DNA from: Candidatus Aenigmatarchaeota archaeon
GTDB taxonomy: Archaea; Aenigmatarchaeota; Aenigmatarchaeia; QMZP01; JAFGSV01
Assembly (NCBI GenBank): GCA_016934325.1
Contig: JAFGSV010000019.1
Coordinates: forward strand, 1,197 to 65,196
Length of the DNA stretch: 64,000 nucleotides
Direction of reading: 5' to 3'
Part shown: in pieces, positions 40,396-64,000 of the stretch
Layout: every line of letters begins with the position of its first letter
How positions within the stretch are numbered: the first letter of the stretch is position 1
Position numbers and translations under genes: made by a program
The notes under the pieces: model-generated
Databases searched by the model: none
The model's input: only the letters and a program-made list of their open reading frames with translations
Told to the model about the DNA's origin: nothing

Positions 40396-40554
40396 TCAGG
40401 ACCTTGCCTTCTTGGGCTTCCTCCTGCTCCTCGGGTTCGTGAATGGGGCAGGCATGGATTCCTCAGCCTTCGCCCTCAGAAAATGCAGATAGATGCCCAC
40501 GCCGATGAATGCCAGCGCAGCAATCCCCATGACGAGCAACGCGTAAGTCTCCAT
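40396..40554 (-). CDS. Possible 52-aa single-TM protein (below the ORF-track cutoff)
   Basis: Hand translation of the minus strand gives METYALLVMGIAALAFIGVGIYLHFLRAKAEESMPAPFTNPRSRRKPKKARS-stop. It lies 27 nt downstream of the 865-aa coiled-coil gene. Confidence 0.3.
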   Translation of the reverse strand: METYALLVMGIAALAFIGVGIYLHFLRAKAEESMPAPFTNPRSRRKPKKARS

Positions 40555-40581
40555 CTTCAACCAGCTCCGCCGTTATCGGGC

Positions 40582-43179
40582 TTACTCTTTGTCGGGTTCC
40601 AGGTCCACCAGCATCACCTTCTCCCCGGCCTCTCCCTTCGTCTCGAGCTTGTCGACGTCCCTCCTGATCTCAGCGCTCCTCTCGGTGACCCTGTCCATCT
40701 TCTTCTCGAGCAGGTCCATCCTCATCATCGACCTGGAGAAATCGTTCATCCTCCTCTCCAGCTCCGACAGCTTGGCATCGAGGCCGTTCATCTTGCCGCT
40801 CAGCTCGCCCCTGGTCGTTAGGAAGGCCTTCACCGCGGAATCGAACTTGTCCCGGCCTCCCATCTTCAGAGAGTCGACCTGGCTCCTGGCATCCGCGAGG
40901 CCCTTCGCAAGGCCGGACCTCATCTCCTTCATCTCCTTCCCCAAGTTCCTCGCCCTCTCGTCGATGCCAGCCTGGTTGGCCTTCATGGCCTGCAGCGAAG
41001 CCACGCTCCTCTCGATCTCATCTTTCTCCTCGTCTATGAATCTCAGCCTCTCCTCCAGCCTGCCGAGCGATTCCAGCCTGGTCTTCATCCTCTCCATGCC
41101 CTTAGACGAGGCGGTCATTTCTTTCCTCAAGCCTGCCATGTCGGACCTCATCTTCGACTCGATCGCTTTCGTCTTCTCGCCGAAGCCGGCTTCGATGTTT
41201 TCCCTCAACTGCCGCATGCTGGCCTCCAGGAACTGGACCTTCTCCTCGATCCTCTCGTCAACGGCCGCGCTCTGCGCGTCCTTCGCCTGGTCTATCTCCT
41301 TGAGCCTAATCTGAAGCTTCTCTATGTCCTCGAGCTTCCTGTCGTACTTGGAAAGTTCCGCATGGACGAACGACATGTCCCTCTTGCCGGCCTGCCAGTC
41401 CTTCCTTGCCGACTGCATCTCGAGGTTCAGGGCCTTCAGCTCCTCGGAAAGCTTTGATAATGAAGCCGTGTTGAATCCGGTCTCCCTCTTCAGCGCCGCG
41501 ACATTGTAATCCAGCTTGCCATCGAGGACGGTGCTCGCGCTCTCGATCTTGTCCTGGATGGCCATGTCGGCGCTCTTGGATTCCTTCATGGCGGATTGCA
41601 GTTCGTTCCTGAGCGCGGCTGTCTGACGCAGGACGGGCTTGATCTCGCTGAGGCTGGCGGACAATGACCTTTCCAGCTTCTCTATGTCCCTGATCTTCTG
41701 CCTGAGGGTGCCCAGGGACGCGACCTTCTTGCCGAACTCCAGCTGGCCGGCCCTGAGCCCCGCGGCCGTTTTCGCGAGGTCTGCCTTGATAGCAGCCGCC
41801 TCCCCGGCCAACCTGCCGTCGAGGGATTTGTGCTTCTCATCCAATTTCACGAGGCCTTCCCGGACCTCGGAAACGTCTCCCATCCCTGCGAGGAGGGCAT
41901 CCTTTGCGTCCTCGATCACCTTCACCCTTTCTCTGAGAGCCTCGAGCGACCCGACCCTCTTCGATATCGAAGCCAGGCCGGCCTTGACATCCTGGATCCC
42001 TGCCTTGGATCCCGTCGAGCTGTTCCTGATGTCCCTCATGCCCGCGCTTAGCTTATGCAGCTCCGCCTTAAGCTTCGCGATTCCCGCATGCTCCTGGGCC
42101 AAGGACTTTCCCATGCCCACGAGATCCGCCGACACTCCCGCTTCGAACTGCTTGCCCCTTTCGACCAGCCTCGTCTCCATGGTCCTGCCCTTCTCGGTCA
42201 GGCTGGCCTCGAGAAACTTGAGCCTCTCCTGCAGCTTCGAATCGAGGACCTTGTCCGCGCCCGTGAGCCGGGCATCGATGTCCCTCGTCTTCTGCTCCAA
42301 TAACGCCAGCTTCGCCTTCATCTCCTTGTTGGACTCCACTCCCCTGACGAGGCTCTCCTTGACGGCCTCAAGGTTCTTTATCCGGGACTGCAGCGTGCCG
42401 AGCAGCTCCAGCCTCTTCCTGTCCTGGGCGGCGTGGCCCCTCACTCGCGCGATGCTCGCGCCCTGAGATTCCAGGTCCTTCCTCAGGGCCTGCAGGTCCA
42501 GGGCCGACCTGTCCAGCGCCGCGTCAACTGCCTTGATCGCGAGGCTGTTGCCCCTCATGTCCTTCTGCATGGAAGCCATGTCCGCCGACAGCTTGGATTG
42601 GGCCTGGGCTGCCTTATCCCCTATCGAGGACTCCAGGCCGGAAAGCCTTTCCTTCAGGACGGCGACGCTGCCGCTCAGCGATTCTAGGTCCTGCACCCCC
42701 TTGAGCAGGACCTGCCCCGCCTTCTCTATCTCGCTCACCTTCTCGCGCACAGAAGAGAGGCTGGCTATCCTCTTCTCCAGCCCGTCAAGGTACCTGGTCA
42801 GCGCCTTGTCATCATCCTTGCTCTCCTTCACGCCATGCTGCGCATCCTCCGCCGCGCCCTGGGCGCGCTGGATCCTCTCCCCGACCTCGAGCAGCGCCGT
42901 CTTGTGATCCTCCGAGCGCTTCTCCAGGGCGGAAATGCCGGCCGCGAGCCTCCTCTCGGCATCCCCGATGCCTCCTTCCAGCTCCTTCATCCTCTCGCTC
43001 AGCTTGGCCAGCGATTCGGAAGCGGAGATGGCCCTCTGGGAAACCTCCCTGATCCCGAGCCTGTTCGATTCGACGACCTTGGTAAGCTCGTTTGCCAGAA
43101 CATCATGCTTGGCCTTCAGCTCTTCCTTCTCCCTCTTCAGTTCGGTTATGCCGCTTCTGATCCTTTTGAAGGTGTCCAT
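40582..43179 (-). CDS. Very long coiled-coil protein (865 aa)
   Basis: A/E/K/L/R/S-rich, with no TM or signal peptide. Recurrent signature near residues 139, 258, 409, 487, 616 and 702 (for example VGSLEALRERVKVIEDAKDAL, VASLGTLRQKIRDIEKLERSL, LESLGRLEERLRFIDEEKDEI). The start lies 1 nt after the stop of the upstream gene. Confidence 0.75.
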   Translation of the reverse strand: MDTFKRIRSGITELKREKEELKAKHDVLANELTKVVESNRLGIREVSQRAISASESLAKLSERMKELEGGIGDAERRLAAGISALEKRSEDHKTALLEVGERIQRAQGAAEDAQHGVKESKDDDKALTRYLDGLEKRIASLSSVREKVSEIEKAGQVLLKGVQDLESLSGSVAVLKERLSGLESSIGDKAAQAQSKLSADMASMQKDMRGNSLAIKAVDAALDRSALDLQALRKDLESQGASIARVRGHAAQDRKRLELLGTLQSRIKNLEAVKESLVRGVESNKEMKAKLALLEQKTRDIDARLTGADKVLDSKLQERLKFLEASLTEKGRTMETRLVERGKQFEAGVSADLVGMGKSLAQEHAGIAKLKAELHKLSAGMRDIRNSSTGSKAGIQDVKAGLASISKRVGSLEALRERVKVIEDAKDALLAGMGDVSEVREGLVKLDEKHKSLDGRLAGEAAAIKADLAKTAAGLRAGQLEFGKKVASLGTLRQKIRDIEKLERSLSASLSEIKPVLRQTAALRNELQSAMKESKSADMAIQDKIESASTVLDGKLDYNVAALKRETGFNTASLSKLSEELKALNLEMQSARKDWQAGKRDMSFVHAELSKYDRKLEDIEKLQIRLKEIDQAKDAQSAAVDERIEEKVQFLEASMRQLRENIEAGFGEKTKAIESKMRSDMAGLRKEMTASSKGMERMKTRLESLGRLEERLRFIDEEKDEIERSVASLQAMKANQAGIDERARNLGKEMKEMRSGLAKGLADARSQVDSLKMGGRDKFDSAVKAFLTTRGELSGKMNGLDAKLSELERRMNDFSRSMMRMDLLEKKMDRVTERSAEIRRDVDKLETKGEAGEKVMLVDLEPDKE

Positions 43180-43180
43180 T

Positions 43181-45403
43181 TCAGCCCTCTATCTCTTTCA
43201 GCAGCCGGTCAAGCTCCAGCTTGTACTCCTTCTTCCAGCTGACGATCTCGCCGAGCACCTTCTGCAGCCTCTTGTCAAGCATTTCCAAACGCTTCCTGTT
43301 CGCGGCCGAGAGCTGGGTGTTCTTCCCCGCCTGGCCGCCCAGCTCTTGCAGGCTCTTGCCGACCTCAGCGACCGACTTCCCAAGGCCCTCGAACCTGCTC
43401 TCCAGGCCGGCGCTCTGCCTGCCGAAGGCCTGCTTCTCGGCCGCAATCATGTCCTTCAGGTCGCTCTTGAGCTTGGCCGCCGTCCCTGCCATGTCCTTGC
43501 TGGCCCTGAGGGCCTCGTTCTCGAGCCTGGCGCTCGTGCCCGCGGCCAGCCTGTCCATGGAATTGCCGAAAGCGTCCATCCTCTTCTCCATGCCGGCGAC
43601 GCTCTTCTGCATCCCGGTGACCATGGCCGCGAGGGAATGCAGGCCCTTGACATCGGCCTTCAGCGCGGCGTTATCCTCCCGCAGGGCGTGCACGTCCTGC
43701 CTAAGGTTGTGCCTTGCGGCCGAGAAGGCCTTAACGTTCTCCTCGGTGATCCTGGATTCCGCAGCCTCCAAACCGCTCTTGATCTCGGACTTCAGCAGAT
43801 CGAGCTGCTTCTTGAGCCGCATGTCGTCGCGCTCCGACTTGTCCATCACCTGCCGTGAGATGGCATCGATTTTGGACTGCAGCGCCGCATCGGCATCATC
43901 CGCCTTCCTAAGGCCGGCCGCCAGCGCCTTGATGTCGGAGGTAAGTGCCTTGAGCCTGGCGACCTCCTTCGAGGTCGCTTCAGCCCGCGAGCGCAGGGAG
44001 ATGAGGGCTGCCATGTTGTCCTCCCTGAGCTTGGCGATGACCGCCGCATTCTCCTTTCCCAGCTCGGAGCTGATCAGCTTGACCCTCTCGTCTATCTTCT
44101 TGTCGATCTTCTGCAGCTCGTTCTTGATAATGATCCTGTTCCTCTCGAACCTGTCCTTGAATGAGGCTATGTTCTCGTTCACCCCGGCTTCCGTGGTCTG
44201 GATCCTCCGACTCATCGTTGCCGCCTGCTTAACCATGTCTCCCATCCTGCCTTTCATCTCCCTGAGGCCGGCTATCTCGCCGCTGGCCGCAGCCAGGCCG
44301 CTGTCCAGGCTCGATATCTTACCCAGGATCGCCTTCTCGGAATCCTTCTGGGCCCTTGCGTTGCCGTCGATCCCCTTCTCGAGCATCCTCAGCCTTTCAT
44401 CCACGCCCCTGATCTCCGAGCCGAGGCCGCTTCTGAGGGCGGACCCGGCCTTCCGCACCTTGCTATCGACCTTCCTCTCGAATGACAGCCTGGCGGAATT
44501 GGCCGATTCAAGCTGCCTCGCCAGATGTGCCTGGATCTCCTCCAGCCTCAGCATCGTTTCGCGCAAGTTCTTCTCGTCCTTCTGCCTGAGGTCGCTGGAG
44601 AAAGACAGCACCTTCCTGTCGACATCGTCCGCCAGCCCCTTCAGCGCCCCGCTGATGTCCGCCTCCTTCTTGGACATGACGCCCTTTATCCTTCCCTCGA
44701 GCTTCTCCATGTCGAGCTTCGTCTGGCTGAGGTTCGCGATCGTCTCCTGCAGCCTGCCGTCCAGCCCGCCTATGTCCTGCTCGAACTTCATGATGGCCTC
44801 TATGTCCTTGCCTATGATGAGGTTCCTCTCTCTAAGCATGTTGATCTTGGCGTTGAGGTCCTTCTCGAGGGCCGCTGCCTTGCCGGCCACCTTCCTGTCG
44901 AGCGAGAGCCTCAGCGCATCGAGCTTCTTGTCCGTCTCGGCCAGGGCGCCGGTTATGCTCTCCCCTAGCGCGGCGTCGACCTTCTGCGTCTTGGTCACGG
45001 ACCCCTTGATGGCCAAGCCTAGCCTATCATCCCTGGCGTCGAGCTCCTGCGCAAGGGCCGCAATCCTTGCGTCCAGCTTCCCAAGGCTTTCGTTCATGGA
45101 CTTCTTCAGGGAAAGGATGGATTCGCCAAGCATCCTGTCCTCCGTCCCGAGCTTCCTCGAGCCGCCCTCGAGCTTGTTGAGCCTCTCCACAACCGGGTTG
45201 ACCTGGTTGTTTATGAAGTAGAGGAGCCTCTTCCCCGCCTCGCCGTAGACATAGGACGCCTCCTTCAGCTTGTTCAGCAGGTAGTCGTTCCTGCTCTTGA
45301 GCAGCGTGTTCTCCTTCTTCAGGGCCTGGGCTGCAGACTTCTGGTTCTCGGCGTCATCCCTCAGACGCTTCAGCTCGACTTCAACCCTGCTTATCTCGTC
45401 CAT
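43181..45403 (-). CDS. Very long coiled-coil protein (740 aa), compositional paralogue of the 865-aa protein
   Basis: Same A/E/K/L/R/S-rich heptad-like composition, with no TM. The plus-strand 666-aa ORF over it is Ser/Leu-rich antisense noise. Confidence 0.75.
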   Translation of the reverse strand: MDEISRVEVELKRLRDDAENQKSAAQALKKENTLLKSRNDYLLNKLKEASYVYGEAGKRLLYFINNQVNPVVERLNKLEGGSRKLGTEDRMLGESILSLKKSMNESLGKLDARIAALAQELDARDDRLGLAIKGSVTKTQKVDAALGESITGALAETDKKLDALRLSLDRKVAGKAAALEKDLNAKINMLRERNLIIGKDIEAIMKFEQDIGGLDGRLQETIANLSQTKLDMEKLEGRIKGVMSKKEADISGALKGLADDVDRKVLSFSSDLRQKDEKNLRETMLRLEEIQAHLARQLESANSARLSFERKVDSKVRKAGSALRSGLGSEIRGVDERLRMLEKGIDGNARAQKDSEKAILGKISSLDSGLAAASGEIAGLREMKGRMGDMVKQAATMSRRIQTTEAGVNENIASFKDRFERNRIIIKNELQKIDKKIDERVKLISSELGKENAAVIAKLREDNMAALISLRSRAEATSKEVARLKALTSDIKALAAGLRKADDADAALQSKIDAISRQVMDKSERDDMRLKKQLDLLKSEIKSGLEAAESRITEENVKAFSAARHNLRQDVHALREDNAALKADVKGLHSLAAMVTGMQKSVAGMEKRMDAFGNSMDRLAAGTSARLENEALRASKDMAGTAAKLKSDLKDMIAAEKQAFGRQSAGLESRFEGLGKSVAEVGKSLQELGGQAGKNTQLSAANRKRLEMLDKRLQKVLGEIVSWKKEYKLELDRLLKEIEG

Positions 45404-45457
45404 TCGATCACGTCAGACATCGGCCTCATCGAAACGGCCTTACATATACATCACTTA

Positions 45458-47347
45458 TCACTTCAGCTCGTGCAGCAGCATCGCCACCCTGGCCTTCTGG
45501 GCCTTGATGGTGTCCTCCAGCTTCCTCTTCTCGGCTGCGTGCTGCTTGATCAGGGCATGGAACTCCTTCTTCTCCCCCGCGACCCTCTGCTCCAGCGCCT
45601 TGTAGGAATCCCGCAAAGCCTTGACGTCGTTCAAGATGACGGCCACCCTGTCATGGAGCTTCTTCGTTGGGACGGCCCTCTCGTCGAGGTCGTTAATCCT
45701 CTGCTCGAGCCCATCGGCCCGCCGGACGAAGAACTCCCTGATCTCGAGTATGTCCTTCGTCTTGTTGTCCAGCTCCGTGATGATCTCCTTCGGCGTCTGC
45801 AGCGCCTTTATCATGTCCTCGAGGTCCACGTCCCGGGACTTGAGGCCTTCGATCCTTCCGGATAACTTCTCCTGCTCGTCGTTGATGTCCTGCATTTCGT
45901 CCTCGAGCTTGTCGAACTGCCCTTGCAGGACCGCAAGCTCGCTTATCTCCTTGTGGGATTCGGCCACCATGTTTTCCACCGACTCTAGCTTGTCATCGAT
46001 GAACGCGAACCGGCCGGCGAACTCCTTCCTGATGCTGCTTGCCTCCGCCTCTATCATCTTGGGCAGCAGCTCCTTAATCCTGTCCTCGGTTGATTTCTTC
46101 TGCTCCTTGTCCAGCTCCCTGACCAGCGCCCTCAGCTCGGCCAAGAGCTGCTTGGTGCCGGTGAGGCCCTCGTCCAGCTTCTCGATCCGCTGATCGAACT
46201 TGTATAATGACTTGATGTCCTTGTTGGCCGTGTCTATTTCGCTTCGGATGGACAGCCTCGCCTCATCGGCTTTCTGCAAGGCGTCCTCCACGTCCTTCAC
46301 CCTCTTCGAGAAGGGATCGATCCTCTCATCTACCTTCCTCTTGACGATCACGGGGATGACCTCTTCCTTCAGGTCGTCCGCGGATGATATCAGCATCCTG
46401 AGCTTCTGGACGTTGTCCGCCCCCAGCTTCCTGTCCAGCTGCTTCATCTTGTCCTCGAGGTCCGGCACCACATCCACGACTTGGAGTTCCTTGTCTATCG
46501 CCATGAACCTGTTCTCGGCCTCCTCCTTGAAGGCATCGAAAAGGGTCGCCATGTCCCTGATGCCCTTCTTTATCTTATCTATCTCCTTCTGCAGCTCGAC
46601 GCCCCCTCCCATGGCCATGAGCCCGCCCGATACCTCTCCGGCAGCGGCCGCCTCCTGCCTGGGCGGCGACTCCTTCTTCTCCTCGAGCTTCTCCGACAGC
46701 TCCTTGAGCCTCTTGTCGAACATCTTCTTCATCGTCTCCGCGACCTCCTCCTCTCCCTTCTTTTGCTCTTCCTTCTTCGCCGAGGCGGCCTCCAAGGCTT
46801 CCTTCAGCGCCGTTATCTGGGATGCCGTCTTCTCCTCGAGCTCCCTGAGCTTCGGCTCTATGTCGGGCGCGGCTGACTGGGTGGCGGGAGCGGCTTGCGC
46901 GGCCGGGGTCGTCTTGGCCTCCTTTATCTCGCCGGAAAGCTCCTCGACGAGGCTGGCCATCTCGTCCCTCTTCCTTTCCGCATCCTCCTTTTCCTTCTCG
47001 GCTTCCTCTATGCTGGCCTTCTGCTGCTCAAGCTGCTTCCTCAGCTTCGCGACGGAGGATGGCTCTTCCTTCTTCTTCGCCTTTTTCGGCCTGGGAGCCG
47101 GCTTTTCAACCTCGTCGGGTTTCTCCTGCTCCACTGCCTCGACGAGCGCCTCTTCCATGGCGCCCGGGGGCTTCTCCTCGGCCTTCCCCGCATCTTCCTT
47201 TTCGCCCGCGGCGAAATTGGCGAGGCCGGCAAGCGATTCTTCCTTCTTCCCTTCCCGGCCGCTGCCTGGCTCATCGAGCTTCTTGCCCTCTTGCTTGGCC
47301 TTCTCAAGCTCCTTCTTCCTCTTTTCCTCTTCGCTCTTTCCGAACAT
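45458..47347 (-). CDS. Coiled-coil protein (629 aa) with a K/E/P/A-rich disordered N-terminal third
   Basis: N-terminus MFGKSEEEKRKKELEKAKQEGKK...PAPRPKKAKKKEEP, followed by long helical segments. The start codon directly abuts the stop of the 90-aa TM protein (47348). Confidence 0.75.
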   Translation of the reverse strand: MFGKSEEEKRKKELEKAKQEGKKLDEPGSGREGKKEESLAGLANFAAGEKEDAGKAEEKPPGAMEEALVEAVEQEKPDEVEKPAPRPKKAKKKEEPSSVAKLRKQLEQQKASIEEAEKEKEDAERKRDEMASLVEELSGEIKEAKTTPAAQAAPATQSAAPDIEPKLRELEEKTASQITALKEALEAASAKKEEQKKGEEEVAETMKKMFDKRLKELSEKLEEKKESPPRQEAAAAGEVSGGLMAMGGGVELQKEIDKIKKGIRDMATLFDAFKEEAENRFMAIDKELQVVDVVPDLEDKMKQLDRKLGADNVQKLRMLISSADDLKEEVIPVIVKRKVDERIDPFSKRVKDVEDALQKADEARLSIRSEIDTANKDIKSLYKFDQRIEKLDEGLTGTKQLLAELRALVRELDKEQKKSTEDRIKELLPKMIEAEASSIRKEFAGRFAFIDDKLESVENMVAESHKEISELAVLQGQFDKLEDEMQDINDEQEKLSGRIEGLKSRDVDLEDMIKALQTPKEIITELDNKTKDILEIREFFVRRADGLEQRINDLDERAVPTKKLHDRVAVILNDVKALRDSYKALEQRVAGEKKEFHALIKQHAAEKRKLEDTIKAQKARVAMLLHELK

Positions 47348-47620
47348 CTACTTCCCCAGCTCCTCTATCAGCTTCTTGGTCAGCTTCTTCTGCTTCTCTA
47401 TATCGCCCTCGATGCCGGCGATCCTGGCCTCCAGCTTCTGCACCTTCTCCGTGAGGTTTGATTCTTCCATGTCATCGGGCCTTATGCCGACGAACTTCTC
47501 CCATATCTTCTCCGTTGGCAGCTCGTACTTCCTGGCATGCAGGACGCCGAACTTGCGCAGCTCGTATACGAGAAAAACGATGGATGCCAGAAGCAAAACA
47601 GACAAAGCTATGTCCCACAT
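47348..47620 (-). CDS. Small N-terminal-TM protein with coiled-coil tail (90 aa)
   Basis: MWDIALSVLLLASIVFLVYEL (TM), then KVQKLEARIAGIEGDIEKQKKLTKKLIEELGK. There is zero-nt spacing to the next gene. Confidence 0.6.
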   Translation of the reverse strand: MWDIALSVLLLASIVFLVYELRKFGVLHARKYELPTEKIWEKFVGIRPDDMEESNLTEKVQKLEARIAGIEGDIEKQKKLTKKLIEELGK

Positions 47621-47760: not shown

Positions 47761-47786
47761 TAAGATACCGATTCAATGCTCCTGTC

Positions 47787-49512: not shown

Positions 49513-49782
49513 CTACCAGCCAAGCGCCTTGAGCTTCTCCATGTTCCGCTTTCTCAGCTCCTTGTAGGCATTTTCAGAGATGATGCCCTGGTTGTACTCC
49601 TTCTCGAGCAGGTTGAGAACCTTGATTATCTTCGCCTTCTCTTCCTCCTTCCTGGCTGCTGCAGCTGCATCCTTCTCCACATATTTACCCTTCATGGCAG
49701 GCCCGGCTCCTATCATCTCCTTTGCGGCAGTCACCTCGGGGACCTCCCTCTTGAAGGTCCTCTCTATCCTCTTCCTGTACCT
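49513..49782 (-). other. Cytoplasmic tail of giant protein B with a SHOCT-like motif (49513..49632)
   Basis: Positive-inside residues RYRKRIERTFKR follow the TM. The terminal L-x2-L-x3-Y-x2-G-x-I-S-x2-x-Y-x2-L-x-K pattern resembles the SHOCT short C-terminal domain. Confidence 0.5.
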
Positions 49783-55798: not shown

Positions 55799-57823
55799 TC
55801 ATTTCTTCAGCAACATCCTCTTGCTCTTTTCATAAGCCCTTCTGCTGATCTCCCCGTTCTTGTAGGATTCCTGGAGCTTAGCCAGCATCATCGCCTTGCT
55901 GTGGCGCTTCCCGCCACCGCCGCCGGTTGCCGCCGGATCTTCGCCCTTCTGGGCCTTCGGCTTCGAGTAGGACGCTATCTTGGCGTCGATCTCCCTTATC
56001 CTCTGCAGGTTCTTGGTCTTGGCGCTGTTGAACTCCTCCTCCGATATGTCCTTGTTGCGCAGGTTCTCCTCCAGCGTGCTCAGCAGCGTCTCGATCTCCT
56101 CCTTCTCCTCCTGCAGCATCTTGGCCTCGGGCGGGAGCTCGATTTCGGTAGACTTCGCTGCCTTCATGGCCTGTTCCTTCACTTCGGAAACCGCCTGCTT
56201 GACGACTTCCATGTCGTCCCTGGTCGCATAATCCGACAGCCTCCTTGTCACGTCCTCCATGTTCTTCATGATGTCCGCCAGCATTCCTTCGGTCTTGTCC
56301 TGCCTGACCCTGTAGGTGTTGAATTCGTCAAGGCGCTTCCTCAGCTCCACGTACAGGCCGTCCAGCTTTGTCGAAGCCGCCTTCATCCTCTCCTCGATCT
56401 CCTGTATCCTCTCGAGCTTCTCCCCCACGAGCTTGCTGCCCTTCATTATGTTCTCCAGGCTTCCGATATCGGTCATGAGGCCCTTTATCCTGTTCATCGT
56501 GTCGGAGAGCATCTTCCCGCTCCTCTCGAGCCTCTCTATCCTCGTGTTTACGTCCCTCATCTGCTCGTCCCTCGTCGTGAACTCCCTCAGAATCCTGGCC
56601 GAATCCACCTGCGATATGGCGTCCTTGAGCTTGTCGAAGACGACCTCCTGCTCCTTTGATTGCGCTTCCCTCTGATATACGATCGACCTGATCTCGGCGA
56701 AGCTCTCCATCATCCTCTGGATCTTATCATCAGTGACGTTCTTTGCTTCCTTCATGCTCTCGACCAGGGCCTTGCTCTTCTCGACCTCCGTGTTCATCTT
56801 CGTGAACTGCTTGTCAAAGCCTGCCACCGTCTCGCCGGCCTTCTTCAGGTCCTTCAGTTCCGATTCTATAGAGCTGATCCTGTCATCGACCTTCTTGATC
56901 CTCTTGTCCGTCATCTCAAGGCTGGCCGCGGTTATGACATCCTTCATGCGGTCCCCTACCATCTTCTCGAAGTCCTCAAGTACCGGGACTGAGGAAAAGA
57001 TACCTGGCCTCTGGGTCTGCGCGGCCGCCTCCGTTGGGGCTTCGGGCCGTGCAGCTCCCGTCACGACGACGGGCCTCTCCTGCGCGGCAGCCGCGACCGG
57101 CGCCTCTTGCGGGGCGGGCCTCTCCTCCACCTTCACGCCGGAGGCTTCCAGCCTCTTTATCTTGTCCTCCAGCTCCTTGAGCTTGTTCTCGTTCTTTGAC
57201 CTGACCTCCTGGTAGGTCTTGTCCGGGAGAGTGGCTTCCCTGTAGGCATCCTCTATCGAAGAAAGCAGCGCCTCAACCTCATCCTTCTGGGCAATAAGCT
57301 CTGACATGGTCTCCACCGGATTCTCTCCTGGCGCCGTCTCATCCTTGGTGGTCTTTCCATGTTTTCCCTTCTTCTTTACGGGTTTTCTTCCCTTCTTCGG
57401 CCTCGCGTCCTTACTATGACCTTTGACATCATTCCGGGATCCTGCGCCTTCGGGCTTGTCGTCGTCTGGCGCCCCTTGCGTGCCTTCGTCTGGTTTCCGG
57501 TCCCCTTTTCCAGCAGCTTCAGTATTTCCCCCGGAGTCAGATTCCTTCGGCTTATCGGGCCTTTTTCCAGGCTTCGATGAATCGCCTTTGGCACCAGCCG
57601 CGCTCAGGCCTTTAACCCCCGTATCTGAATCTTCCTTTCCCTCCATAACACCAGCCTCCTTCTGCGCCTCCTCGTTATCCTTCCCGCCGCGCTTTTCAAG
57701 CATGACGCGGAACTTGGACCCGAACCTCTTCCGCAGCCCGCCTATGCCGCCTCCGTCATCCGTCCGATCCGCATCCCGCCGGGCATCGCCGCCCGCTCCC
57801 GTATCCTCGCCTTTGCCTTTCAT
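55799..57823 (-). CDS. Coiled-coil protein (674 aa) with highly charged disordered N-terminus and SHOCT-like C-terminus
   Basis: N-terminal ~170 aa are G/K/D/E/P-rich. A central helical region follows. SHOCT-like segments are LLSSIEDAYREATLPDKTYQEVRSKNENKL, LLSTLEENLRNKDISEEEFNSAKTKNLQRI and the C-terminal MLAKLQESYKNGEISRRAYEKSKRMLLKK. The stop lies 4 nt before the giant B start. Confidence 0.75.
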   Translation of the reverse strand: MKGKGEDTGAGGDARRDADRTDDGGGIGGLRKRFGSKFRVMLEKRGGKDNEEAQKEAGVMEGKEDSDTGVKGLSAAGAKGDSSKPGKRPDKPKESDSGGNTEAAGKGDRKPDEGTQGAPDDDKPEGAGSRNDVKGHSKDARPKKGRKPVKKKGKHGKTTKDETAPGENPVETMSELIAQKDEVEALLSSIEDAYREATLPDKTYQEVRSKNENKLKELEDKIKRLEASGVKVEERPAPQEAPVAAAAQERPVVVTGAARPEAPTEAAAQTQRPGIFSSVPVLEDFEKMVGDRMKDVITAASLEMTDKRIKKVDDRISSIESELKDLKKAGETVAGFDKQFTKMNTEVEKSKALVESMKEAKNVTDDKIQRMMESFAEIRSIVYQREAQSKEQEVVFDKLKDAISQVDSARILREFTTRDEQMRDVNTRIERLERSGKMLSDTMNRIKGLMTDIGSLENIMKGSKLVGEKLERIQEIEERMKAASTKLDGLYVELRKRLDEFNTYRVRQDKTEGMLADIMKNMEDVTRRLSDYATRDDMEVVKQAVSEVKEQAMKAAKSTEIELPPEAKMLQEEKEEIETLLSTLEENLRNKDISEEEFNSAKTKNLQRIREIDAKIASYSKPKAQKGEDPAATGGGGGKRHSKAMMLAKLQESYKNGEISRRAYEKSKRMLLKK

Positions 57824-57857
57824 ATCCTTAATTTCACCTCATATTTTTTATATCGGG

Positions 57858-58968
57858 TCACATCGCCTTCACCCGGTTGCTAACGGATTCTATGTAGCTC
57901 TCCGCCATCGTGAAAAGCCCCTGCTTCAGCTTGTCCCTGGCGAGGTTGAGTTCCACCTCCACGTCGCTCGTTTCGACCCCCCTCTTCTTCATGTCGTCGA
58001 GCTTCTTCTGGATCTCGTCGACCGACTTGCCTATCTTGACGTACTTGTCCAACTCCTCCGCCGTCAGCCTCTTGGTATCATGGAGCAGCGGCCTGAAGCT
58101 CACGAACCACGGCTTCCCGTTGTTGTAGCTCGCGTTCTGCATGAGCCCCGTCCCCGTCACGAGCTTGGTGATCTTGCTGGCATAGTCCGGGCCGTACTTG
58201 GTCTTGACCCTGTTTATGTCGCCCTCGTACTTCGTCCTGAGCTGTATCTCGGTCGATATGTTCGCCCTTATGGCTCCCCTGAAGTCCATGAGCACCTGGG
58301 ATATCATGAATATCCCGACGCCCCACTTCCTGAACTCCCTGCACGCCCTCTCGAGCACGATATAGCCGCCCTTGCCTCCATATTTCGGAAGCAGCCTGTG
58401 GACCTCGTCGTATATGAGCATCATCCTCATCTCCCTTGCCTCCGGCAACCTCATCTCGAAAAGGCTCTCGACGCTCCTCCTGACGAACTTGTCCATCTCC
58501 TTGTTGGGAAGCTTCTCCGTGACAAGCACCGTCATCTCTCCCTTCTTCTCCATGATATCCTTCCAAGGTATCGGTTGGTCGCCGTTCTCGATCATTATGA
58601 TGTTCACCTTGTAAGCCCTTGCGTCGTCGGGCTTCATGCCGAACTGCGGGTAGAGGTTCAGCATCGCCGGGTCCTTGCATGGCCTCATGAAGCCGGTCCA
58701 CTGGGCAGTCGGGTCGACAACGACTATGGGTATGCCTCTCTTGAGCAGCTCCTCCGAGCAGACCTGGGCCGACACCGACTTCCCGGCGCCCGTGGAACCC
58801 GCCGCTATGCTGTGGGTGGTGAGGTCGTCAAGGGTCATGTACGCCTTCATGTCGGTCTCGGCGATCTTCCCGACCAGAAGCGACCTGTCCCCGGGCTTGG
58901 GCAGCTTTCCGACATCCATCGGGAATATGTACCTGGCCTTCGATTTCTTCTTCTTCCTGTACATCGAG
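57858..58968 (-). other. Cytoplasmic HerA/FtsK-superfamily ATPase domain of giant protein A
   Basis: Walker A AAGSTGAGKSVS (about 58776-58802), Walker B MLIYDEVHRLLP (about 58387-58420), GVGIFMISQVLMDFRGAIRANISTEIQLRT, and a C-terminal coiled-coil ELDKYVKIGKSVDEIQKKLDDMKKRG. The motif order parallels the stand-alone ATPase at 31453..32742. Confidence 0.75.
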
Positions 58969-61900
58969 AAGAACCTGCTGCCGAAGTAGTAGCCGGGGAT
59001 AAGCGCAAACAGTATCGCATACGTTATCCAGCTCGAGAAGATGGACATGAGCATCTTGATGGGGAGCGGCACGTATATTATGTCGAAGGAGTCTATCGCG
59101 AAAGCCTGCTTCCTGCCGTCCCAGTAAGTCGCGTTGATCTCGATGACGTACCTTCCGAACGATGTGTCGGCCGGTATCTCGATGGACTTCTTGAAGGTCT
59201 TCACGTTCTCTATTGCCAGCGTCTCCCTCTTCCTGATAATGACGTTCTCCGTCTCCAGGCTCTTGATATCATAGGTCACGACGATGTCGTCGATATCTGC
59301 CGTTTCCCCCATGTTCAGCAGGGTGACCTCCAGCGTGAGGTTCGTGCCCGGCTCCACCGTCTTCGAAAGCGCCTTGACCCCCACGTCGAGCAACGGCTCC
59401 TTGGGCCTCTCCACCTTGACGGTTATGGGGGTGACGTGGGTTATGTTCCTTTCCCTGATCCTGGTTATAATGTCGCCTGTGTATATCCCCTCCATCGTCG
59501 ACGGCAGGGTGAACACCTTGATCTTGACAGTTCCCGTGGAGCTTCCCCTGATGTCGAAGACCGGCCTCTCTATCATGACCAGCTCCCAGACATTGCCCTC
59601 CACGCTAACGTCCACCGTTATCGCGCTGCCCAGGTTGTTGGTGACGTCGATGCTGTGTATCTCATGCTCCCCCGGCCTGAGTGTCACGAATATGAGACTC
59701 GACTTTATTTCCACCGGGACCCTGGGCACGCCGACGGCCCCCACCGCGCCGGCTCCGACCCCGCTTGGCCCTCCGGGGGTCGGGGGTTTAGGCGGGACTG
59801 GCTCGGGAGTAACATGCCTGCAGTCCTGCGGGCAGTTGGCGTTAGACTCGCCGTAGTCCTCCTCGCACTCTCCGTTGCCGCAGACGTACTCGGCCAGCGC
59901 GTACGCATCCCCGATCGAGGTCATGAATGCCGCCAAGGTGGTGTTCGACGGGTAGACAGCGACGTTGCTCATCCTGGTCCAAACGCTTCCGCACCCGGTC
60001 CTCCTCGTCCAATTGGTGCATTGGTAGATGCCCAGCACTTTCGGGCTGGCGATTTCATCCTCGAACTCGCTGTAGTTGAAAACCAGAGTGGCGTTGGTCA
60101 TGTTAAGCGTGGTGTTGACCGTGATGCCCCTGAACAGCCCCCTGACGTTCATGCCTATCAGTTTTGTCATGATGTTGCCGAAGCACAGCGGGTTGAAGAC
60201 ATCCGATTGTATGCCGACCCCCCTGATCCCAAGGGATTCGTTCCACAGGTGCAGGTCGATGTTGTACACCCCGGAGTCGATCGTCTGGTTGTAGGTACCC
60301 GCCTGATCGGTGCTGAAGTTGAAGTACGACATGCCTTCGATGTAATAAAGGCTGAAATCAACGCTCAACGGGTCCTTGGGAGCCGTGTCCTCTTCGTCAA
60401 CCGCCTTACCGTGGAACAATATGAGCACAGAGACCAGGAAGGACGCGGAAGTCCCGTTCATGTTCCCCGACATGTCGTAGACCGTCGCGTTTACGTAGTA
60501 ATCACCGGTCTGCGAGGTGTTCGTGAACTGTCCCTGATACGTGTAGGTGTCTCCTATCCTTCCCAAAAGGTAGAGGGAGAGGTTCTCGGTTACATTGTGA
60601 TGGCTAACCGTGGCAGTCACGTTTTTCACGCCGCCAGGCTCTATTATGTCAACGGTTACCGTCGCAATCGAGTTAAGCGAGACCTTCGGAGGAACGCTTA
60701 TCGATATGTCCGGGGGTGAGGTATCCGTGTATATCACGGACTTGTACGCGACATCCCAGTAATAAAGGCTGGTATTGGTGCCATTCATGGTATAGTTGGC
60801 GGAGACGTTCAGGTCGTATCCCCTGTCCAGCTCCAGGTCTGGGGCGGTGAAATTGATCAGCCAATAGCTCTCGTTGGTGACGTTGTCCAAGATCCAGATG
60901 ATATATGTCAAGTTGACATTGAAGGTATCCGTTCCGTTAGAAAGGCTTATATTCCATGCTACGGTGTCGTTCGAGGTTATCGTGTAGTTCCCGTATGTGA
61001 GATTCGCCATCACCCGGACGCTGTCGTTCCAATTCACATTCACGACAGGGTTTGACTCGGTCGGTGATAGGATGTCCACGAAGTATGGGTGCACGGTTAA
61101 GTTCAGGACGGTGGTCTCTATCTTCTCGCCAGCCTCCGCCGTCCAGTTCCTCGTCCTGGCATAGGCGTAGAAAGTGGAGAACTGGCTCACAACCGGCGCC
61201 GTGTAATTGACCTCAAGCTGCCGTGAACCGCCGATGGGGATGTCGATAATCTGCTGGTCCTCTTCAAGCACGAAGTACTGCGGGTATCCTCCGGTTCCCC
61301 TGTAAACGTCGAGCTCAAGATAAACATTCCCCAGGTTCTCGACATATATCTTGCCGAGCGTGCCGTTAGTTCCCTGGATTACGGTCTTGGCGAGCTGTGG
61401 AGTCACCGACCAGGTCAGGTTGGTGGGTATCCTCACGTACACGTCGATGTCATCGTATACCCCCTCGTCGCTAGTCACTTCGAGCATGCCGGAGTACTGC
61501 GCAGCGGGATAGTCCATCGGCACGTAGACCCCGACGCTGATGTTGGCGATTTGCCCGGATTCGAGAACGGACAGGCCGGGAGGCACGAATACCGTGCTGA
61601 AGTTCACGCACACCTCGCCCATGACGCAGTCGAAATCGATGTTTGTGACGTTGACGTTCCCGACGGATTTCACCTGCATCGTCTCGTTCCCGTAAGTGAC
61701 GTTCATTATCCATATGGTGATGTTCTGCCCAAGTATCTCGATGGCCGGATTCGGCTCCACCACGACGAGGACGGTTGTGGTGCTGTTGCCGGTCGTGCTG
61801 TCTATGTTTGTCCATCCGGCTGTGAAGTTGATGGTGTAATTTCCGGCCGGCGTTCCATCCGGCACCGAAAGCGTTATGTTCCCCTCTTTGCTTGAGTTCT

Positions 61901-64000
61901 TGTATATTACCCCGAAGTCGAACGTGCCCGGCGTCACGTTCCACCCGCTTCCTGCCGTCGCATTAACCGACACGTTGTATGCCCTTGCGTACCCGGCGGT
62001 CGCGTTGAAGGCCAGGGCATAAGAGCTGCCATTGTAAATCGTGATGTTATGTATGTATATCGTCGAGACGTTGGGCACGACCGTAACGGCGGTGTTCGCG
62101 GTCGCTGTGCCGTTTATATCGACGCACCTCATCAGGTTGTACGTGTCATTCGCGCATATCTTGAACTGGTAAAGGCCTGTCACGCCTGTCGAGAAGTTAT
62201 GGTAATAATAAGAGCCGTTATGATCCATGGGGACGGTGGTTACACCTCCGATCGTGTTTGTTATGTTTATCCATGCGTAATCCACCGCCTCGTTGTCACT
62301 TATTATGGCGTTCACCGTAGCATTGCTGAAGATTATCTCGAAAACCGGCGGGTCGACGCTGGCATTCTCGATGGTCGGCGGCGGGTTTGTTATGTTCATG
62401 ATGAAGGTCACGTCCCTGGGAGTGGGCGGGGCAGGATCCGTCGTGCCGGTGATGATCGCTGTGATCGTGATCTTGTTGCTGTACTCTCCCGGCGTTGCCA
62501 GAGCCGGCACGGAATAGTTGATGAAGAGCTGTCCCGAAGTCTGCTTTCCTACGTCGAAAGCTTTGTAGAGGTCGTTCGTCCCGTTTATAAGAACGTAAGC
62601 TGGGGTCGAGCCGCCCTTGTAGAAGGTCAGGGTAACCTTGACGTTGCCCGTGTTCGAGAAGTTTATCACGCCGATCGAGCCTTGGGTGGCAAGCGGCGTC
62701 AGGATGGCACCGAAGGTGCTGGGGGCATTCAGCCAGCTGCTGTTCACAAGCACTGTCATATTCAGCAGGGCTTCATCGTACTCTGCGTTGCTGACGTTCG
62801 CCCTCAGCTTGGTCCAATAATCTCCCGGCTGCTGGCCGGCCGGCAAGGTCACCTCGATGTCGGAGGTGAAATTATCACCGGCGGCCAGGTATCCCTGATA
62901 ATCGGGAACAAGCTCAAGTGTGCAGACGGGGCAGTTTACCCTGAAATTGCCACCGACATCCTGCATGTTTACAAGAAGCAGCGGAGAGTTGCCCGTGGAT
63001 GCTATCGTTATGTTCCCGACGAATGTCTTCATGCCATGCTGTATCTGCTTGTAGACATAGTTCTCAAGGATATCAACGACGGGGTTGGATGCCACGACCA
63101 CGGTGGTTGTGCCCACCGTGGTGTTTATGGTCTTGTCCGGATTCCTCCACGTCGCATTGGCCGTGATTGTGATGAGGCCCGGAGGCGTCTTCGGCTTTAT
63201 AGTGACTATTATCTTCCAAACGCATGATTCGCCGGCTTCCATGGTCTGGCATGAGACGTCCGACTGGTTGTACTGCACTTTTCCTCCGGAGTCGTCGTAG
63301 ACGCTGAGATTGACGTTATAAGCGTGGGCAGGTCCGGGGTTGGTGAAATTCATCGTAAGGTTGAAGGGATATCCGCCAGTCTGGGTTATGTTGCTGGCCG
63401 TAAGCCACGACGGGCTAGAGTTCATGATGCCATCGACCTTGCCCCATACCGAGAAATTATAGATAGCCGACTCGTTCATGTTATGCTCCGTGTACGGGTC
63501 CCACGCCCTTATGGTGACGTTGAAGAGGCCGCCCACTGCAGGCAGGTACTGGACCCTATAGGTGTCATTCGCGATCTCCGTCATGTTGAGGTCCACGTAT
63601 CCGTCTCCCGGTATCCCTATGTGCGCCTTGACATCGTAGACATCATAGTTGTCGATTGCCATGGCCGTGATGTTCGTGTAATTCAGGTTGGCTTCCAGGC
63701 TGGCGTTAGGTATGATCGTTATATTGAAAATCTGCGGCGGCTGCTGGTCCTCGATCGTGTATGTGGCGAACGCCTCCGTCGGGTCGGATGCGTTGTACAG
63801 CATGCTCTGGTTGTCGGTAATGTTGCACTTGAAGTATATGACCCCTTTGCTCTCAGGGATCCACAGATGGGTTATGTAGCCGCTGATATTCGAGTAGTGC
63901 GAACCGTTGAATGTATAGTCGGCACCGTTGTAGCTGTACCAGACCTTGACGAGATAGTCCTTAACGGGGTTGTCCTCCGGCCTGTCCTTCACCTGGCAGG
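57858..64000 (-). CDS. Giant surface protein A (more than 2044 aa, 5'-truncated by the window edge) fused through one TM helix to a cytoplasmic HerA/FtsK-like ATPase
   Basis: The frame stays open to nt 64000 and there is no signal peptide at the track start (GTG). The ectodomain is sequon-rich with repeated modules. Cys motif CGNGECEEDYGESNANCPQDC. Linker PEPVPPKPPTPGGPSG. Two CARDB-like domains. TM MSIFSSWITYAILFALIPGYYFGSRFF (about 58969..59047). Then RKKKKSKAR and the ATPase domain. Confidence 0.85.
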   Translation of the reverse strand, partial: CQVKDRPEDNPVKDYLVKVWYSYNGADYTFNGSHYSNISGYITHLWIPESKGVIYFKCNITDNQSMLYNASDPTEAFATYTIEDQQPPQIFNITIIPNASLEANLNYTNITAMAIDNYDVYDVKAHIGIPGDGYVDLNMTEIANDTYRVQYLPAVGGLFNVTIRAWDPYTEHNMNESAIYNFSVWGKVDGIMNSSPSWLTASNITQTGGYPFNLTMNFTNPGPAHAYNVNLSVYDDSGGKVQYNQSDVSCQTMEAGESCVWKIIVTIKPKTPPGLITITANATWRNPDKTINTTVGTTTVVVASNPVVDILENYVYKQIQHGMKTFVGNITIASTGNSPLLLVNMQDVGGNFRVNCPVCTLELVPDYQGYLAAGDNFTSDIEVTLPAGQQPGDYWTKLRANVSNAEYDEALLNMTVLVNSSWLNAPSTFGAILTPLATQGSIGVINFSNTGNVKVTLTFYKGGSTPAYVLINGTNDLYKAFDVGKQTSGQLFINYSVPALATPGEYSNKITITAIITGTTDPAPPTPRDVTFIMNITNPPPTIENASVDPPVFEIIFSNATVNAIISDNEAVDYAWINITNTIGGVTTVPMDHNGSYYYHNFSTGVTGLYQFKICANDTYNLMRCVDINGTATANTAVTVVPNVSTIYIHNITIYNGSSYALAFNATAGYARAYNVSVNATAGSGWNVTPGTFDFGVIYKNSSKEGNITLSVPDGTPAGNYTINFTAGWTNIDSTTGNSTTTVLVVVEPNPAIEILGQNITIWIMNVTYGNETMQVKSVGNVNVTNIDFDCVMGEVCVNFSTVFVPPGLSVLESGQIANISVGVYVPMDYPAAQYSGMLEVTSDEGVYDDIDVYVRIPTNLTWSVTPQLAKTVIQGTNGTLGKIYVENLGNVYLELDVYRGTGGYPQYFVLEEDQQIIDIPIGGSRQLEVNYTAPVVSQFSTFYAYARTRNWTAEAGEKIETTVLNLTVHPYFVDILSPTESNPVVNVNWNDSVRVMANLTYGNYTITSNDTVAWNISLSNGTDTFNVNLTYIIWILDNVTNESYWLINFTAPDLELDRGYDLNVSANYTMNGTNTSLYYWDVAYKSVIYTDTSPPDISISVPPKVSLNSIATVTVDIIEPGGVKNVTATVSHHNVTENLSLYLLGRIGDTYTYQGQFTNTSQTGDYYVNATVYDMSGNMNGTSASFLVSVLILFHGKAVDEEDTAPKDPLSVDFSLYYIEGMSYFNFSTDQAGTYNQTIDSGVYNIDLHLWNESLGIRGVGIQSDVFNPLCFGNIMTKLIGMNVRGLFRGITVNTTLNMTNATLVFNYSEFEDEIASPKVLGIYQCTNWTRRTGCGSVWTRMSNVAVYPSNTTLAAFMTSIGDAYALAEYVCGNGECEEDYGESNANCPQDCRHVTPEPVPPKPPTPGGPSGVGAGAVGAVGVPRVPVEIKSSLIFVTLRPGEHEIHSIDVTNNLGSAITVDVSVEGNVWELVMIERPVFDIRGSSTGTVKIKVFTLPSTMEGIYTGDIITRIRERNITHVTPITVKVERPKEPLLDVGVKALSKTVEPGTNLTLEVTLLNMGETADIDDIVVTYDIKSLETENVIIRKRETLAIENVKTFKKSIEIPADTSFGRYVIEINATYWDGRKQAFAIDSFDIIYVPLPIKMLMSIFSSWITYAILFALIPGYYFGSRFFSMYRKKKKSKARYIFPMDVGKLPKPGDRSLLVGKIAETDMKAYMTLDDLTTHSIAAGSTGAGKSVSAQVCSEELLKRGIPIVVVDPTAQWTGFMRPCKDPAMLNLYPQFGMKPDDARAYKVNIIMIENGDQPIPWKDIMEKKGEMTVLVTEKLPNKEMDKFVRRSVESLFEMRLPEAREMRMMLIYDEVHRLLPKYGGKGGYIVLERACREFRKWGVGIFMISQVLMDFRGAIRANISTEIQLRTKYEGDINRVKTKYGPDYASKITKLVTGTGLMQNASYNNGKPWFVSFRPLLHDTKRLTAEELDKYVKIGKSVDEIQKKLDDMKKRGVETSDVEVELNLARDKLKQGLFTMAESYIESVSNRVKAM

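Follow-up and report, generated by a model that had tools for sequence, protein, structure and literature searches.

What do ten consecutive genes encode that all lie on one strand of an archaeal contig and include two giant surface proteins, a series of long coiled-coil proteins and a MinD-type ATPase? The genes are found in a 64,000-nucleotide stretch of DNA from a Candidatus Aenigmatarchaeota archaeon, a member of the DPANN archaea (contig JAFGSV010000019.1 of assembly GCA_016934325.1, positions 1,197 to 65,196 of the forward strand), which we call the window. An earlier, sequence-only reading of this DNA recognised no archaeal system yet described in the combination. That claim falls with the first of the giants, giant A, which very probably belongs to SPEARE, a protein family described in 2019; a host-contact or secretion role has already been proposed for such giants (PMC6642349, PMC10266531). 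We lean towards the reading that the cluster is a SPEARE locus encoding one envelope-spanning host-contact apparatus, whose putative parts are a pair of glycosylated adhesins, a hexameric motor tethered to the membrane, a SHOCT-based scaffold and a positioning module made of MinD and coiled coils.

Greedy selection of open reading frames (ORFs) gave ten supported genes, all on the minus strand, which span the window from 64000 down to 40396; these re-called ORFs agree with the orientation, coordinates and junction lengths reported before. Several of them encode transmembrane (TM) proteins. In order, the genes are:

57858-64000 and beyond, minus strand: giant A, its 5′ part outside the window
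55799-57823, minus strand: CC674
49513-55794, minus strand: giant B, 2093 amino acids
48643-49308, minus strand: the 221-amino-acid protein
47787-48557, minus strand: MinD
47348-47620, minus strand: TM-CC90
45458-47347, minus strand: CC629
43181-45403, minus strand: CC740
40582-43179, minus strand: CC865
40396-40554, minus strand: small TM ORF, 52 amino acids counted from its ATG

Giant A very probably belongs to the SPEARE family

In the SPEARE proteins of Nanohaloarchaeota, a giant ectodomain is followed by a TM helix close to the C-terminus and by a conserved domain in the cytoplasm; similar sequences have been noted in Aenigmarchaeota (Hamm et al. 2019, PMC6642349). The protein is expressed in culture, and a role in host interaction was proposed for it (PMC6642349). 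Its cytoplasmic part was later re-annotated as a P-loop ATPase bearing a coiled-coil tip, and a SPEARE-type gene of Nanohalococcus was reported to have a second ATPase downstream (Reva et al. 2023, PMC10266531). The parts of giant A come in this order too, from an NPCBM_assoc ectodomain through a TM helix and a P-loop ATPase to a coiled-coil tip:

59055-64000, minus strand: ectodomain, sequon-rich arrays of beta-sandwiches, with the N-terminus beyond the window end
58998-59054, minus strand: TM helix, amino acids 1649-1667 (hydropathy scan), matched in the alignment by the TM segment of SPEARE from Nha. antarcticus
57858-58997, minus strand: cytoplasmic part, a HerA-clade P-loop ATPase followed by the C-terminal helical coiled-coil tip

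In a BLASTP comparison with the published Nha. antarcticus SPEARE, which used the C-terminal 752 residues of that protein (supplementary Fig. S18 of PMC6642349), giant A was 35% identical over 593 amino acids (E = 3e-108). The alignment takes in the final modules of the ectodomain and, beyond them, TM helix, ATPase and terminal coiled coil, and on such sequence grounds we place giant A in the SPEARE family with very little doubt. Other traits of the family are also present: giant A is mostly extracytoplasmic, with one C-proximal TM helix and a cytoplasmic C-terminus, as judged from hydropathy and sequons, and it is thousands of residues long and carries beta-sandwich adhesion-type domains (Pfam NPCBM_assoc, 7.8e-18). 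Its visible length is at least 2046 amino acids, the gene being cut by the window end; its closest relatives reach from 2700 to more than 3740 amino acids, with the 5′ end still open in the fetched flank. Of 83 sources (82 loci and the window), 78 have a homologous ectodomain. Giant A differs from the published description in having no serine-protease, laminin-G or toxin-like region in its visible part: laminin-G was not detected there, and Pfam gave no match to a protease or nuclease family in this part, the N-terminus lying outside the window. The region described in SPEARE as a "restriction enzyme" is, in giant A, the HerA-like ATPase. Sequence searches of the PDB gave nothing for either giant ectodomain, so that no relative of the giant A ectodomain was found there.

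The ATPase has a Walker A motif, AAGSTGAGKS, and a Walker B motif, IYDEVH, whose residues are invariant in an alignment of 18 sequences (alignment A1), and it matches Pfam DUF87 and HerA_C above their cut-offs. It thereby resembles the P-loop core of the HerA-NurA and FtsK/SpoIIIE systems. Unlike canonical HerA, it has no N-terminal HAS-barrel, with the TM helix and ectodomain in its place, and there is no NurA partner in the cluster. In a profile search of the PDB, HerA chains came out on top (E = 3e-11 to 7e-07), and both the VirD4-like IcmO (E = 0.026) and FtsK were well behind. Curated NCBIfam models for HerA, TraC, TraD and CedD all scored far below cut-off, the HerA models reaching 23-26 bits against cut-offs of 800-970. 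Because HerA chains are the best PDB matches, yet the curated models score so far below cut-off, we place the ATPase by sequence within the HerA/FtsK superfamily, as a separate branch that is tethered to the membrane; it is not a canonical HerA, nor can it be shown to be a type IV secretion ATPase. Giant A as a whole is then predicted to be a type I membrane protein with a glycosylated ectodomain and a catalytically intact ATPase.

The TM-plus-ATPase part of giant A has 352 relatives in the protein collection, and those with a named organism are almost all from DPANN archaea. A pattern scan of species-representative genomes detected at least 518 relatives; the best of these loci are mostly labelled Aenigmatarchaeota, and others are labelled Micr-, Nano-, Woese-, Undin-, Parv-, Alti- and Nanohal-archaeota. 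One locus with a SPEARE ATPase and a CC674-family gene, on a 3.5-kb contig binned as Heimdallarchaeota (L019, JAEOTG010000200.1), is probably a mis-binned DPANN fragment.

The window contains a second DUF87/HerA-like ATPase, a soluble protein of 429 amino acids (31453-32742, minus strand), whose best match in PADLOC is mad8 (8e-24). An adjoining ORF (30935-31402) encodes a protein of 155 amino acids with four TM segments. DUF87 genes of 428-430 amino acids are also found a few kilobases past the cluster in L083, L084 and L086, where, as in what follows, L-numbers denote fetched loci whose ORFs were called and searched with the window proteins and with family profiles.

A coiled-coil partner gene accompanies SPEARE-type ATPases

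We counted linkage over SPEARE-type ATPase genes that have at least 1.5 kb of downstream sequence, drawn from several DPANN phyla. At 90 of 100 such genes, a member of the CC674 family is encoded on the same strand no more than 5 kb downstream, and in 73 it is the first ORF. A giant B homologue is present in 38, and MinD in 23, of the 59 loci whose downstream sequence reaches 9 kb or more; this undercounts MinD, whose gene is often located past a giant B of 6 kb. The CC674 partner is also present at nanohaloarchaeal SPEARE genes (L092-L102) that are 62-68% identical to the type protein. At the locus of Ca. Nha. antarcticus itself (NAR1_11; L089, 11202-13371), the genes after SPEARE lie on the opposite strand.

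The size of the parts varies greatly from locus to locus. In a woesearchaeal genome (GCA_021734865.1; L002, 1-22100), a giant of 15,808 amino acids lies directly upstream of a separate SPEARE-type ATPase of 699 amino acids, followed by a CC674-family coiled-coil protein of 696 amino acids and a second giant of 4,143 amino acids, in which we detected no similarity to giant B. At the other extreme are mini clusters (L073, 2465-7972; L075, 3832-9274) consisting of a signal-peptide-bearing ATPase of 724-730 amino acids, a coiled-coil protein of ~500 amino acids, a giant B core of 325-341 amino acids, and MinD. These mini clusters share metagenome-assembled genomes with giant versions (L021, L023). 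They therefore define a four-gene core, comprising the SPEARE ATPase, the CC674 family, giant B and MinD. The gene order of the cluster is beyond chance and is kept in other genomes. The proposal that it forms a syntenic unit is thus borne out: homologues are not scattered, with the ATPase and CC674 paired at 90 of 100 genes and the order from giant B to the terminal small peptide kept in five of five informative contigs, as detailed below.

A SHOCT-like motif recurs in CC674 and the tail of giant B

CC674 has a disordered, Lys-rich N-terminus that is specific to its subclade and a conserved, helical core of about 230 amino acids (56144-56836), in which E373 and R379 are invariant across 32 sequences (alignment A2). 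In the same alignment, members of the family have up to three copies of a helix-loop-helix motif of the form LLxxLExxYxxGxISxxxYxxxKxxN. The copies in CC674 itself, supported by the alignment, by a profile hidden Markov model (HMM) and by an AlphaFold2 model, are:

57146-57310, minus strand: SHOCT-like helix-loop-helix motif
55952-56140, minus strand: SHOCT-like helix-loop-helix motif
55805-55891, minus strand: SHOCT-like helix-loop-helix motif

Pfam SHOCT (PF09851) matches 6 of the 32 family members and SHOCT_2 (PF20612) matches 5, with best E-values of 7e-4 and 3e-4, respectively. The motif fits this group in sequence and in the predicted model, and we call it SHOCT-like only, because the Pfam matches are weak and the window protein has none. 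An HMM built from the CC674-family motif matched CC674 with independent E-values of 3e-15 and 1e-3. Scanned against all six frames of the window, it found the three copies in CC674, one in the tail of giant B and a weak match in an ORF of 128 amino acids. In the AlphaFold2 model of CC674 residues 170-674 (pLDDT 72, pTM 0.21), helix-loop-helix hairpins form at the three motifs with pLDDT about 90, and long helices lie between them. A Foldseek search with this model returned non-significant helical matches only (best E = 1.5). BLAST self-comparison of CC865, CC740, CC629 and CC674 detected no internal repeats, a loose regular expression finding only irregular spacing.

Giant B begins with an N-terminal signal or anchor and beta-sandwich arrays, and ends with the following parts:

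50188-50388, minus strand: NPCBM_assoc domain (Pfam), followed by an extracellular helical stalk
49786-49842, minus strand: TM helix, amino acids 1985-2003 (hydropathy scan)
49522-49647, minus strand: SHOCT-like cytoplasmic tail (motif HMM, independent E-value 1.2e-07)

The motif ends every giant B homologue that we inspected. It had been suggested that tails of this kind are SHOCT-like and that the long coiled coils share them; the first part stands, for giant B and all of its inspected homologues, and the second stands for CC674 but not for CC629, CC740 or CC865. The paralogues in the mini clusters correspond to giant B amino acids ~1780-2090, and so retain NPCBM_assoc, stalk, TM helix and tail. 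By sequence, then, giant B is predicted to be a second glycosylated type I giant with a single SHOCT-like hairpin as its tail. There are 95 sequons in giant A (4.6 per 100 amino acids) and 111 in giant B (5.3 per 100), and one or two in each of the cytoplasmic proteins of the cluster (0.1-0.5 per 100). The topology suggested before for the giants, with single TM helices separating ectodomain from cytoplasmic side, fits both the hydropathy scan and this sequon density.

The weak match in the six-frame scan is to the C-terminus of a membrane protein of 128 amino acids encoded elsewhere in the window (13230-13616, plus strand; E = 2e-3).

MinD and the 221-amino-acid protein

The ParA-type gene had been assigned to MinD, and it passes the curated archaeal model (NCBIfam TIGR01969 minD_arch, 234.1 bits against a cut-off of 201.75). 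The protein also matches Pfam ParA, AAA_31 and CbiA and has a deviant Walker A motif of the KGGVGKT type, SGKGGVGKTT, at residues 9-18. Its C-terminus, FITRFLRFFGLSR, is basic and hydrophobic, and is predicted from its sequence to form an amphipathic membrane-targeting helix; tails like FITRFLRFFGLSR are found in the cluster MinDs of other loci. In a metagenome-assembled genome labelled Altiarchaeota (L056, 5378-6736), a complete MinD is extended at its C-terminus by two SHOCT-like motifs (independent E-values 4e-7 and 6e-6), and its gene is flanked by those of a mini giant B and of another MinD.

The 221-amino-acid protein had been regarded as an orphan. It is in fact a member of a small family with 25 representatives among 1.84 billion proteins, and the gene is syntenic in 11 loci. 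No match was found in Pfam or NCBIfam. An AlphaFold2 model (pLDDT 88, pTM 0.86) has an N-terminal winged-helix-like unit, and Foldseek matches to PadR- and IclR-type proteins were non-significant, the best being to the PadR protein Rv1176c (E = 0.4, TM score 0.25-0.29). The model makes it possible that the protein is a winged-helix regulator.

Order and distribution of the distal genes

In TM-CC90, a TM helix at the N-terminus is joined to a cytoplasmic coiled coil. The gene ends without a gap before CC629 (0 nt), and the protein is 69-70% identical to its counterparts in L083 and L085. The N-terminal half of CC629 is Lys/Glu-rich and disordered, and its C-terminal ~390 amino acids are conserved. 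CC740, which is 100% identical to JXC85_03860, has full-length orthologues in 24 clusters at 34-77% identity, and the few that come with an organism name are from Aenigmatarchaeota; its composition illustrates that proline and aromatic residues are almost absent from these coiled coils. CC865 follows after 1 nt, with orthologues in L083 and L085 and a partial one in L084. For the coiled coils, CC629 and CC865 among them, we found only generic coiled-coil matches below cut-off, to SMC/Rad50 arms. The possibility that CC629 is a distant paralogue of CC674, raised by a BLASTP match of 23% identity over 178 amino acids (E = 1e-3), was rejected, hhalign giving a probability of 7.5%. The 52-amino-acid peptide has a single TM segment and a conserved PAPFxNP...RKPK motif; in L083 and L085 the ORFs at this position share 40-59% identity with it, L084 has it as well, and in L086 a gene of 54 amino acids is called there.

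All five informative contigs (L083, L085, L086, L087 and L088, the last of which begins at MinD) keep the order giant B, a protein of 207-222 amino acids, MinD, a TM coiled-coil protein of ~90 amino acids, a coiled-coil protein of ~640 amino acids, a CC740-like protein and a CC865-like protein. Where the contig reaches past the last coiled-coil gene, in L083, L085 and L086, the tiny TM peptide comes next. From the 221-amino-acid protein to this peptide, all of the proteins other than MinD occur in a single Aenigmatarchaeota clade only, and none of them has the SHOCT-like motif. This synteny persists down to 34% identity in CC740, and L086 has a different downstream flank. In distant Aenigmatarchaeota (L030, L035), a TM-coil ORF of 75-89 amino acids and then a coiled-coil ORF of 633-655 amino acids come after MinD, and we detected no sequence similarity between ORFs of this type and the window proteins. 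We had considered that one locus, L084 (CP070804.1), might demonstrate that CC629, CC740 and CC865 are separable from giant B and MinD. This argument was withdrawn, as a run of Ns lies upstream of the truncated CC629 homologue; L084 is uninformative on separability because a scaffold gap occupies the position of giant B, MinD and TM-CC90. The run is found at ~8685-8785 of a 742-kb single-sequence genome, and the giant genes were probably lost in assembly.

Junctions and transcription units

The tight junctions of the cluster measure 4, 0 and 1 nt, and the loose ones 204, 85 and 166 nt. We read the intergenic regions by eye for promoter-like and T-run signals. TATA-like AT-rich boxes lie ~30 nt before the starts of the 221-amino-acid gene, which thus has its own promoter-like region, of MinD and of TM-CC90, at the loose junctions, and T-runs come after the stops of giant B and MinD. 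Because of these signals there are likely at least four transcription units, as the sequence-only reading had anticipated in proposing several: giant A, CC674 and giant B; the 221-amino-acid gene; MinD; and TM-CC90, CC629, CC740, CC865 and the peptide. Long ORFs on the plus strand (e.g. 57423-60719) are antisense shadows of genes supported by homology.

Other features of the window

The DNA upstream of the cluster is ordinary archaeal chromosome, with genes for AspRS, DNA ligase, MgtE and MscS. A myo-inositol-1-phosphate synthase gene (10016-12517, plus strand) contains an intein, which has a homing-endonuclease domain of the LAGLIDADG type (Pfam Inos-1-P_synth, Intein_splicing and LAGLIDADG_3). 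The ORF at 42-4349 (plus strand; 1435 amino acids) has no Pfam match and a C-terminal TM anchor at amino acids 1406-1424, and probably encodes a surface protein. Three paralogous beta-propellers of the PQQ-like/BamB type, each of ~430 amino acids, are encoded near one another at 23376-24668, 28178-29476 and 29519-30820, all on the minus strand. Between ~16000 and 22000 the GC content is 0.40-0.45, against 0.54-0.62 elsewhere; this stretch may be an acquired island, and it carries genes for a methyltransferase-domain protein of 863 amino acids and a helix-turn-helix protein of 445 amino acids.

A model for the putative apparatus and its alternatives

ATPases of the HerA/FtsK superfamily form hexamers, and polymer translocation is expected from the family. 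On the strength of this superfamily knowledge, we propose that the ATPase domains of giant A would form a hexameric ring under the membrane, bundling six giant ectodomains into a host-binding surface structure. CC674, whose gene adjoins that of the ATPase and which is for that reason our candidate ring binder, would dock on the ring and recruit the tails of giant B, and in some lineages MinD, by SHOCT-SHOCT contacts. The motor might then act at the contact site by driving a DNA or protein polymer through the membrane of the symbiont, or it might remodel the adhesin. MinD, the TM-CC90 adaptor and CC629, CC740 and CC865 would constitute a positioning or landmark module that fixes the site of the apparatus, and the winged-helix-like 221-amino-acid protein could be a local regulator. 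The role in host contact is taken by analogy from the SPEARE literature and the DPANN lifestyle rather than from the sequence of the window.

Several points weigh against this model. The links between the proposed parts come from gene order, one shared motif and one fusion, all read from sequence, and that the organism has a host is itself assumed from the DPANN lifestyle. We identified no pore-forming or channel component in the cluster, and Pfam and PDB searches revealed no recognisable enzymatic or toxin domain in the giant ectodomains. In the type organism, Nha. antarcticus, there is no CC674-family gene within 10 kb of the SPEARE gene. The assignment of the motif is weak, with Pfam SHOCT E-values of 3e-4 to 0.1 in the CC674 family and no Pfam SHOCT or SHOCT_2 match in the CC674 of the window, and the six-frame HMM scan found no copy of it in CC629, CC740, CC865 or TM-CC90. 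Sequence-detectable orthologues of these last four proteins are confined to one clade of Aenigmatarchaeota, and because of this restriction the adjacency of the distal genes could be inherited synteny; the four genes also appear to form a separate transcription unit.

These last points lead to the alternative that survives best, which we consider doubtful as an account of the whole cluster and which is compatible with the core model: that two units lie side by side, adjacent by descent, one a SPEARE operon, possibly with MinD, and the other an independent coiled-coil operon from TM-CC90 to the peptide. The separate promoter-like regions and T-runs fit such a division, as do the lack of a common motif between the two groups of genes, the occurrence of CC740 orthologues in only one Aenigmatarchaeota clade, and the lack of a relation between the CC629 and CC674 families in hhalign. 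However, none of the five informative contigs breaks the adjacency, at identities as low as 34% and even where the flank has changed in L086; MinD, a small TM coiled-coil protein and a long coiled coil follow giant B in distant lineages too; and the sole apparent counter-example, L084, is uninformative at its scaffold gap. CC629, CC740 and CC865 may belong physically to the SPEARE machine.

A housekeeping function in the envelope seems unlikely. The giants would here be an S-layer-like coat, with the ATPase ring, CC674, MinD and the coiled coils as a cytoplasmic anchoring skeleton that orders and inserts it. Both giants are indeed sequon-rich, TM-anchored type I proteins, the extracellular helical stalk of giant B adjoins the membrane, the locus occurs in most of the Aenigmatarchaeota genomes sampled, no S-layer domain was found among the other window proteins scanned with Pfam, and a six-fold ring could template a p6 lattice. 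But Pfam finds no S-layer domain in the giants either, and no S-layer is known to depend on a covalently attached ATPase. Ectodomains that range from ~300 to more than 15,000 amino acids, with mini and giant versions in one genome, would be unexpected for a lattice wall. The SPEARE of Nha. antarcticus was, moreover, read as an interaction protein (PMC6642349).

It is quite improbable that the locus encodes a system for DNA or effector transfer related to type IV secretion, conjugation or Ced, with the cytoplasmic domain as a VirB4/TraG/VirD4-type ATPase, an explanation that overlaps with the host-contact model. Such a function was proposed for the nanohaloarchaeal giants (PMC10266531); the layout of TM segment and P-loop domain resembles that of coupling proteins, there are weak NCBIfam matches below cut-off to CedD (4.8e-9), TraC and TraD, and some homologues faintly match TrwB_AAD_bind or T4SS-DNA_transf. 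The PDB profile search nevertheless ranks HerA (E about 1e-11) above VirD4/IcmO (0.026) and FtsK, Pfam detects no N-terminal VirB4 (CagE_TrbE_VirB) domain in giant A, and Pfam and NCBIfam detect no VirB3, VirB6, VirB8, relaxase, pilin or CedA-like gene in the cluster. The conserved neighbour is a coiled-coil protein, not the second ATPase reported for Nanohalococcus. A HerA-based anti-phage defence system can be rejected as having next to no likelihood: PADLOC gave weak matches for the ATPase (mad8, 1e-13; HerA, 1.6e-11), but the ATPase is tethered to the membrane and to a giant glycosylated ectodomain, there is no nuclease, Sir2 or other effector, the other scanned proteins (giant B, TM-CC90 and the 52-amino-acid peptide lay outside the scan) giving nothing beyond generic sub-threshold matches to coiled-coil or P-loop models, and the locus is near-universal and vertically conserved in its lineage.

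Relation to known systems and significance

Beyond SPEARE and HerA, the host-contact apparatus that we favour invites comparison with three kinds of system. MinD-MinJ-DivIVA, the PomXYZ system of Myxococcus, TadZ/CpaE of Tad pili and haloarchaeal MinD4 are all positioning modules. The cluster resembles them in joining an archaeal MinD, a small TM-plus-coil protein and long coiled coils to an adjoining membrane machine. This likeness is architectural only: TM-CC90, CC629, CC740 and CC865 have no sequence relation to MinJ, DivIVA or PomX/Y, and there is no MinE or MinC. Large archaeal surface proteins include TM-anchored S-layer glycoproteins and stalked proteins of the tetrabrachion type. The giants are similarly large type I proteins, N-glycosylated as far as sequons indicate, and giant B has a membrane-proximal helical stalk, but they differ in lacking an S-layer domain, in having an ATPase or a SHOCT-like tail in the cytoplasm, and in their highly variable length. 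Finally, long DPANN-specific coiled-coil proteins (CCPs), which are reported from Aenigmarchaeota and further lineages and for which host interaction has been proposed, are encoded at type IV pilus loci (10.1101/2023.02.24.529834). CCPs adjoin CpaF/TadC pilus genes, which are absent from this cluster; our comparison of CC674, CC629, CC740 and CC865 with CCPs was by description only.

The CC674 family, the SHOCT-tailed giant B and MinD are not mentioned in either account of SPEARE (PMC6642349, PMC10266531). In the searchable literature, outside which most subscription journals lie, we found no description of the CC674-family partner, the common SHOCT-like motif, the mini four-gene version or the Aenigmatarchaeota-specific extension made up of CC629, CC740, CC865 and the two small TM proteins.

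A bolder version of the host-contact model, which we regard as a long shot, is that the four-gene core is a HerA-driven envelope-spanning conduit of DPANN archaea, unrelated to type IV secretion, that would make up the symbiont side of cytoplasmic bridges to the host. Electron cryotomography of the DPANN archaeon ARM-1 revealed a 21-nm barrel-shaped docking platform that is not yet assigned to a protein (10.1101/2024.05.20.594898). It is a similarly distant prospect that such a conduit is a candidate for this platform, with CC629, CC740 and CC865 as a cortex that holds it in Aenigmatarchaeota.

It is an unsolved problem how DPANN archaea recognise and hold their hosts and feed from them; SPEARE proteins, the leading candidates here, have been studied as single genes in one phylum. 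Our analysis turns a SPEARE protein into a defined candidate complex, with CC674 as a near-obligatory partner, a SHOCT-like motif and a minimum of four genes. The predicted interfaces are testable, and the mini versions are tractable for expression and structural work. The partner genes may also serve as markers by which to find the apparatus in cultured DPANN-host pairs, in tomograms as well as in proteomes.

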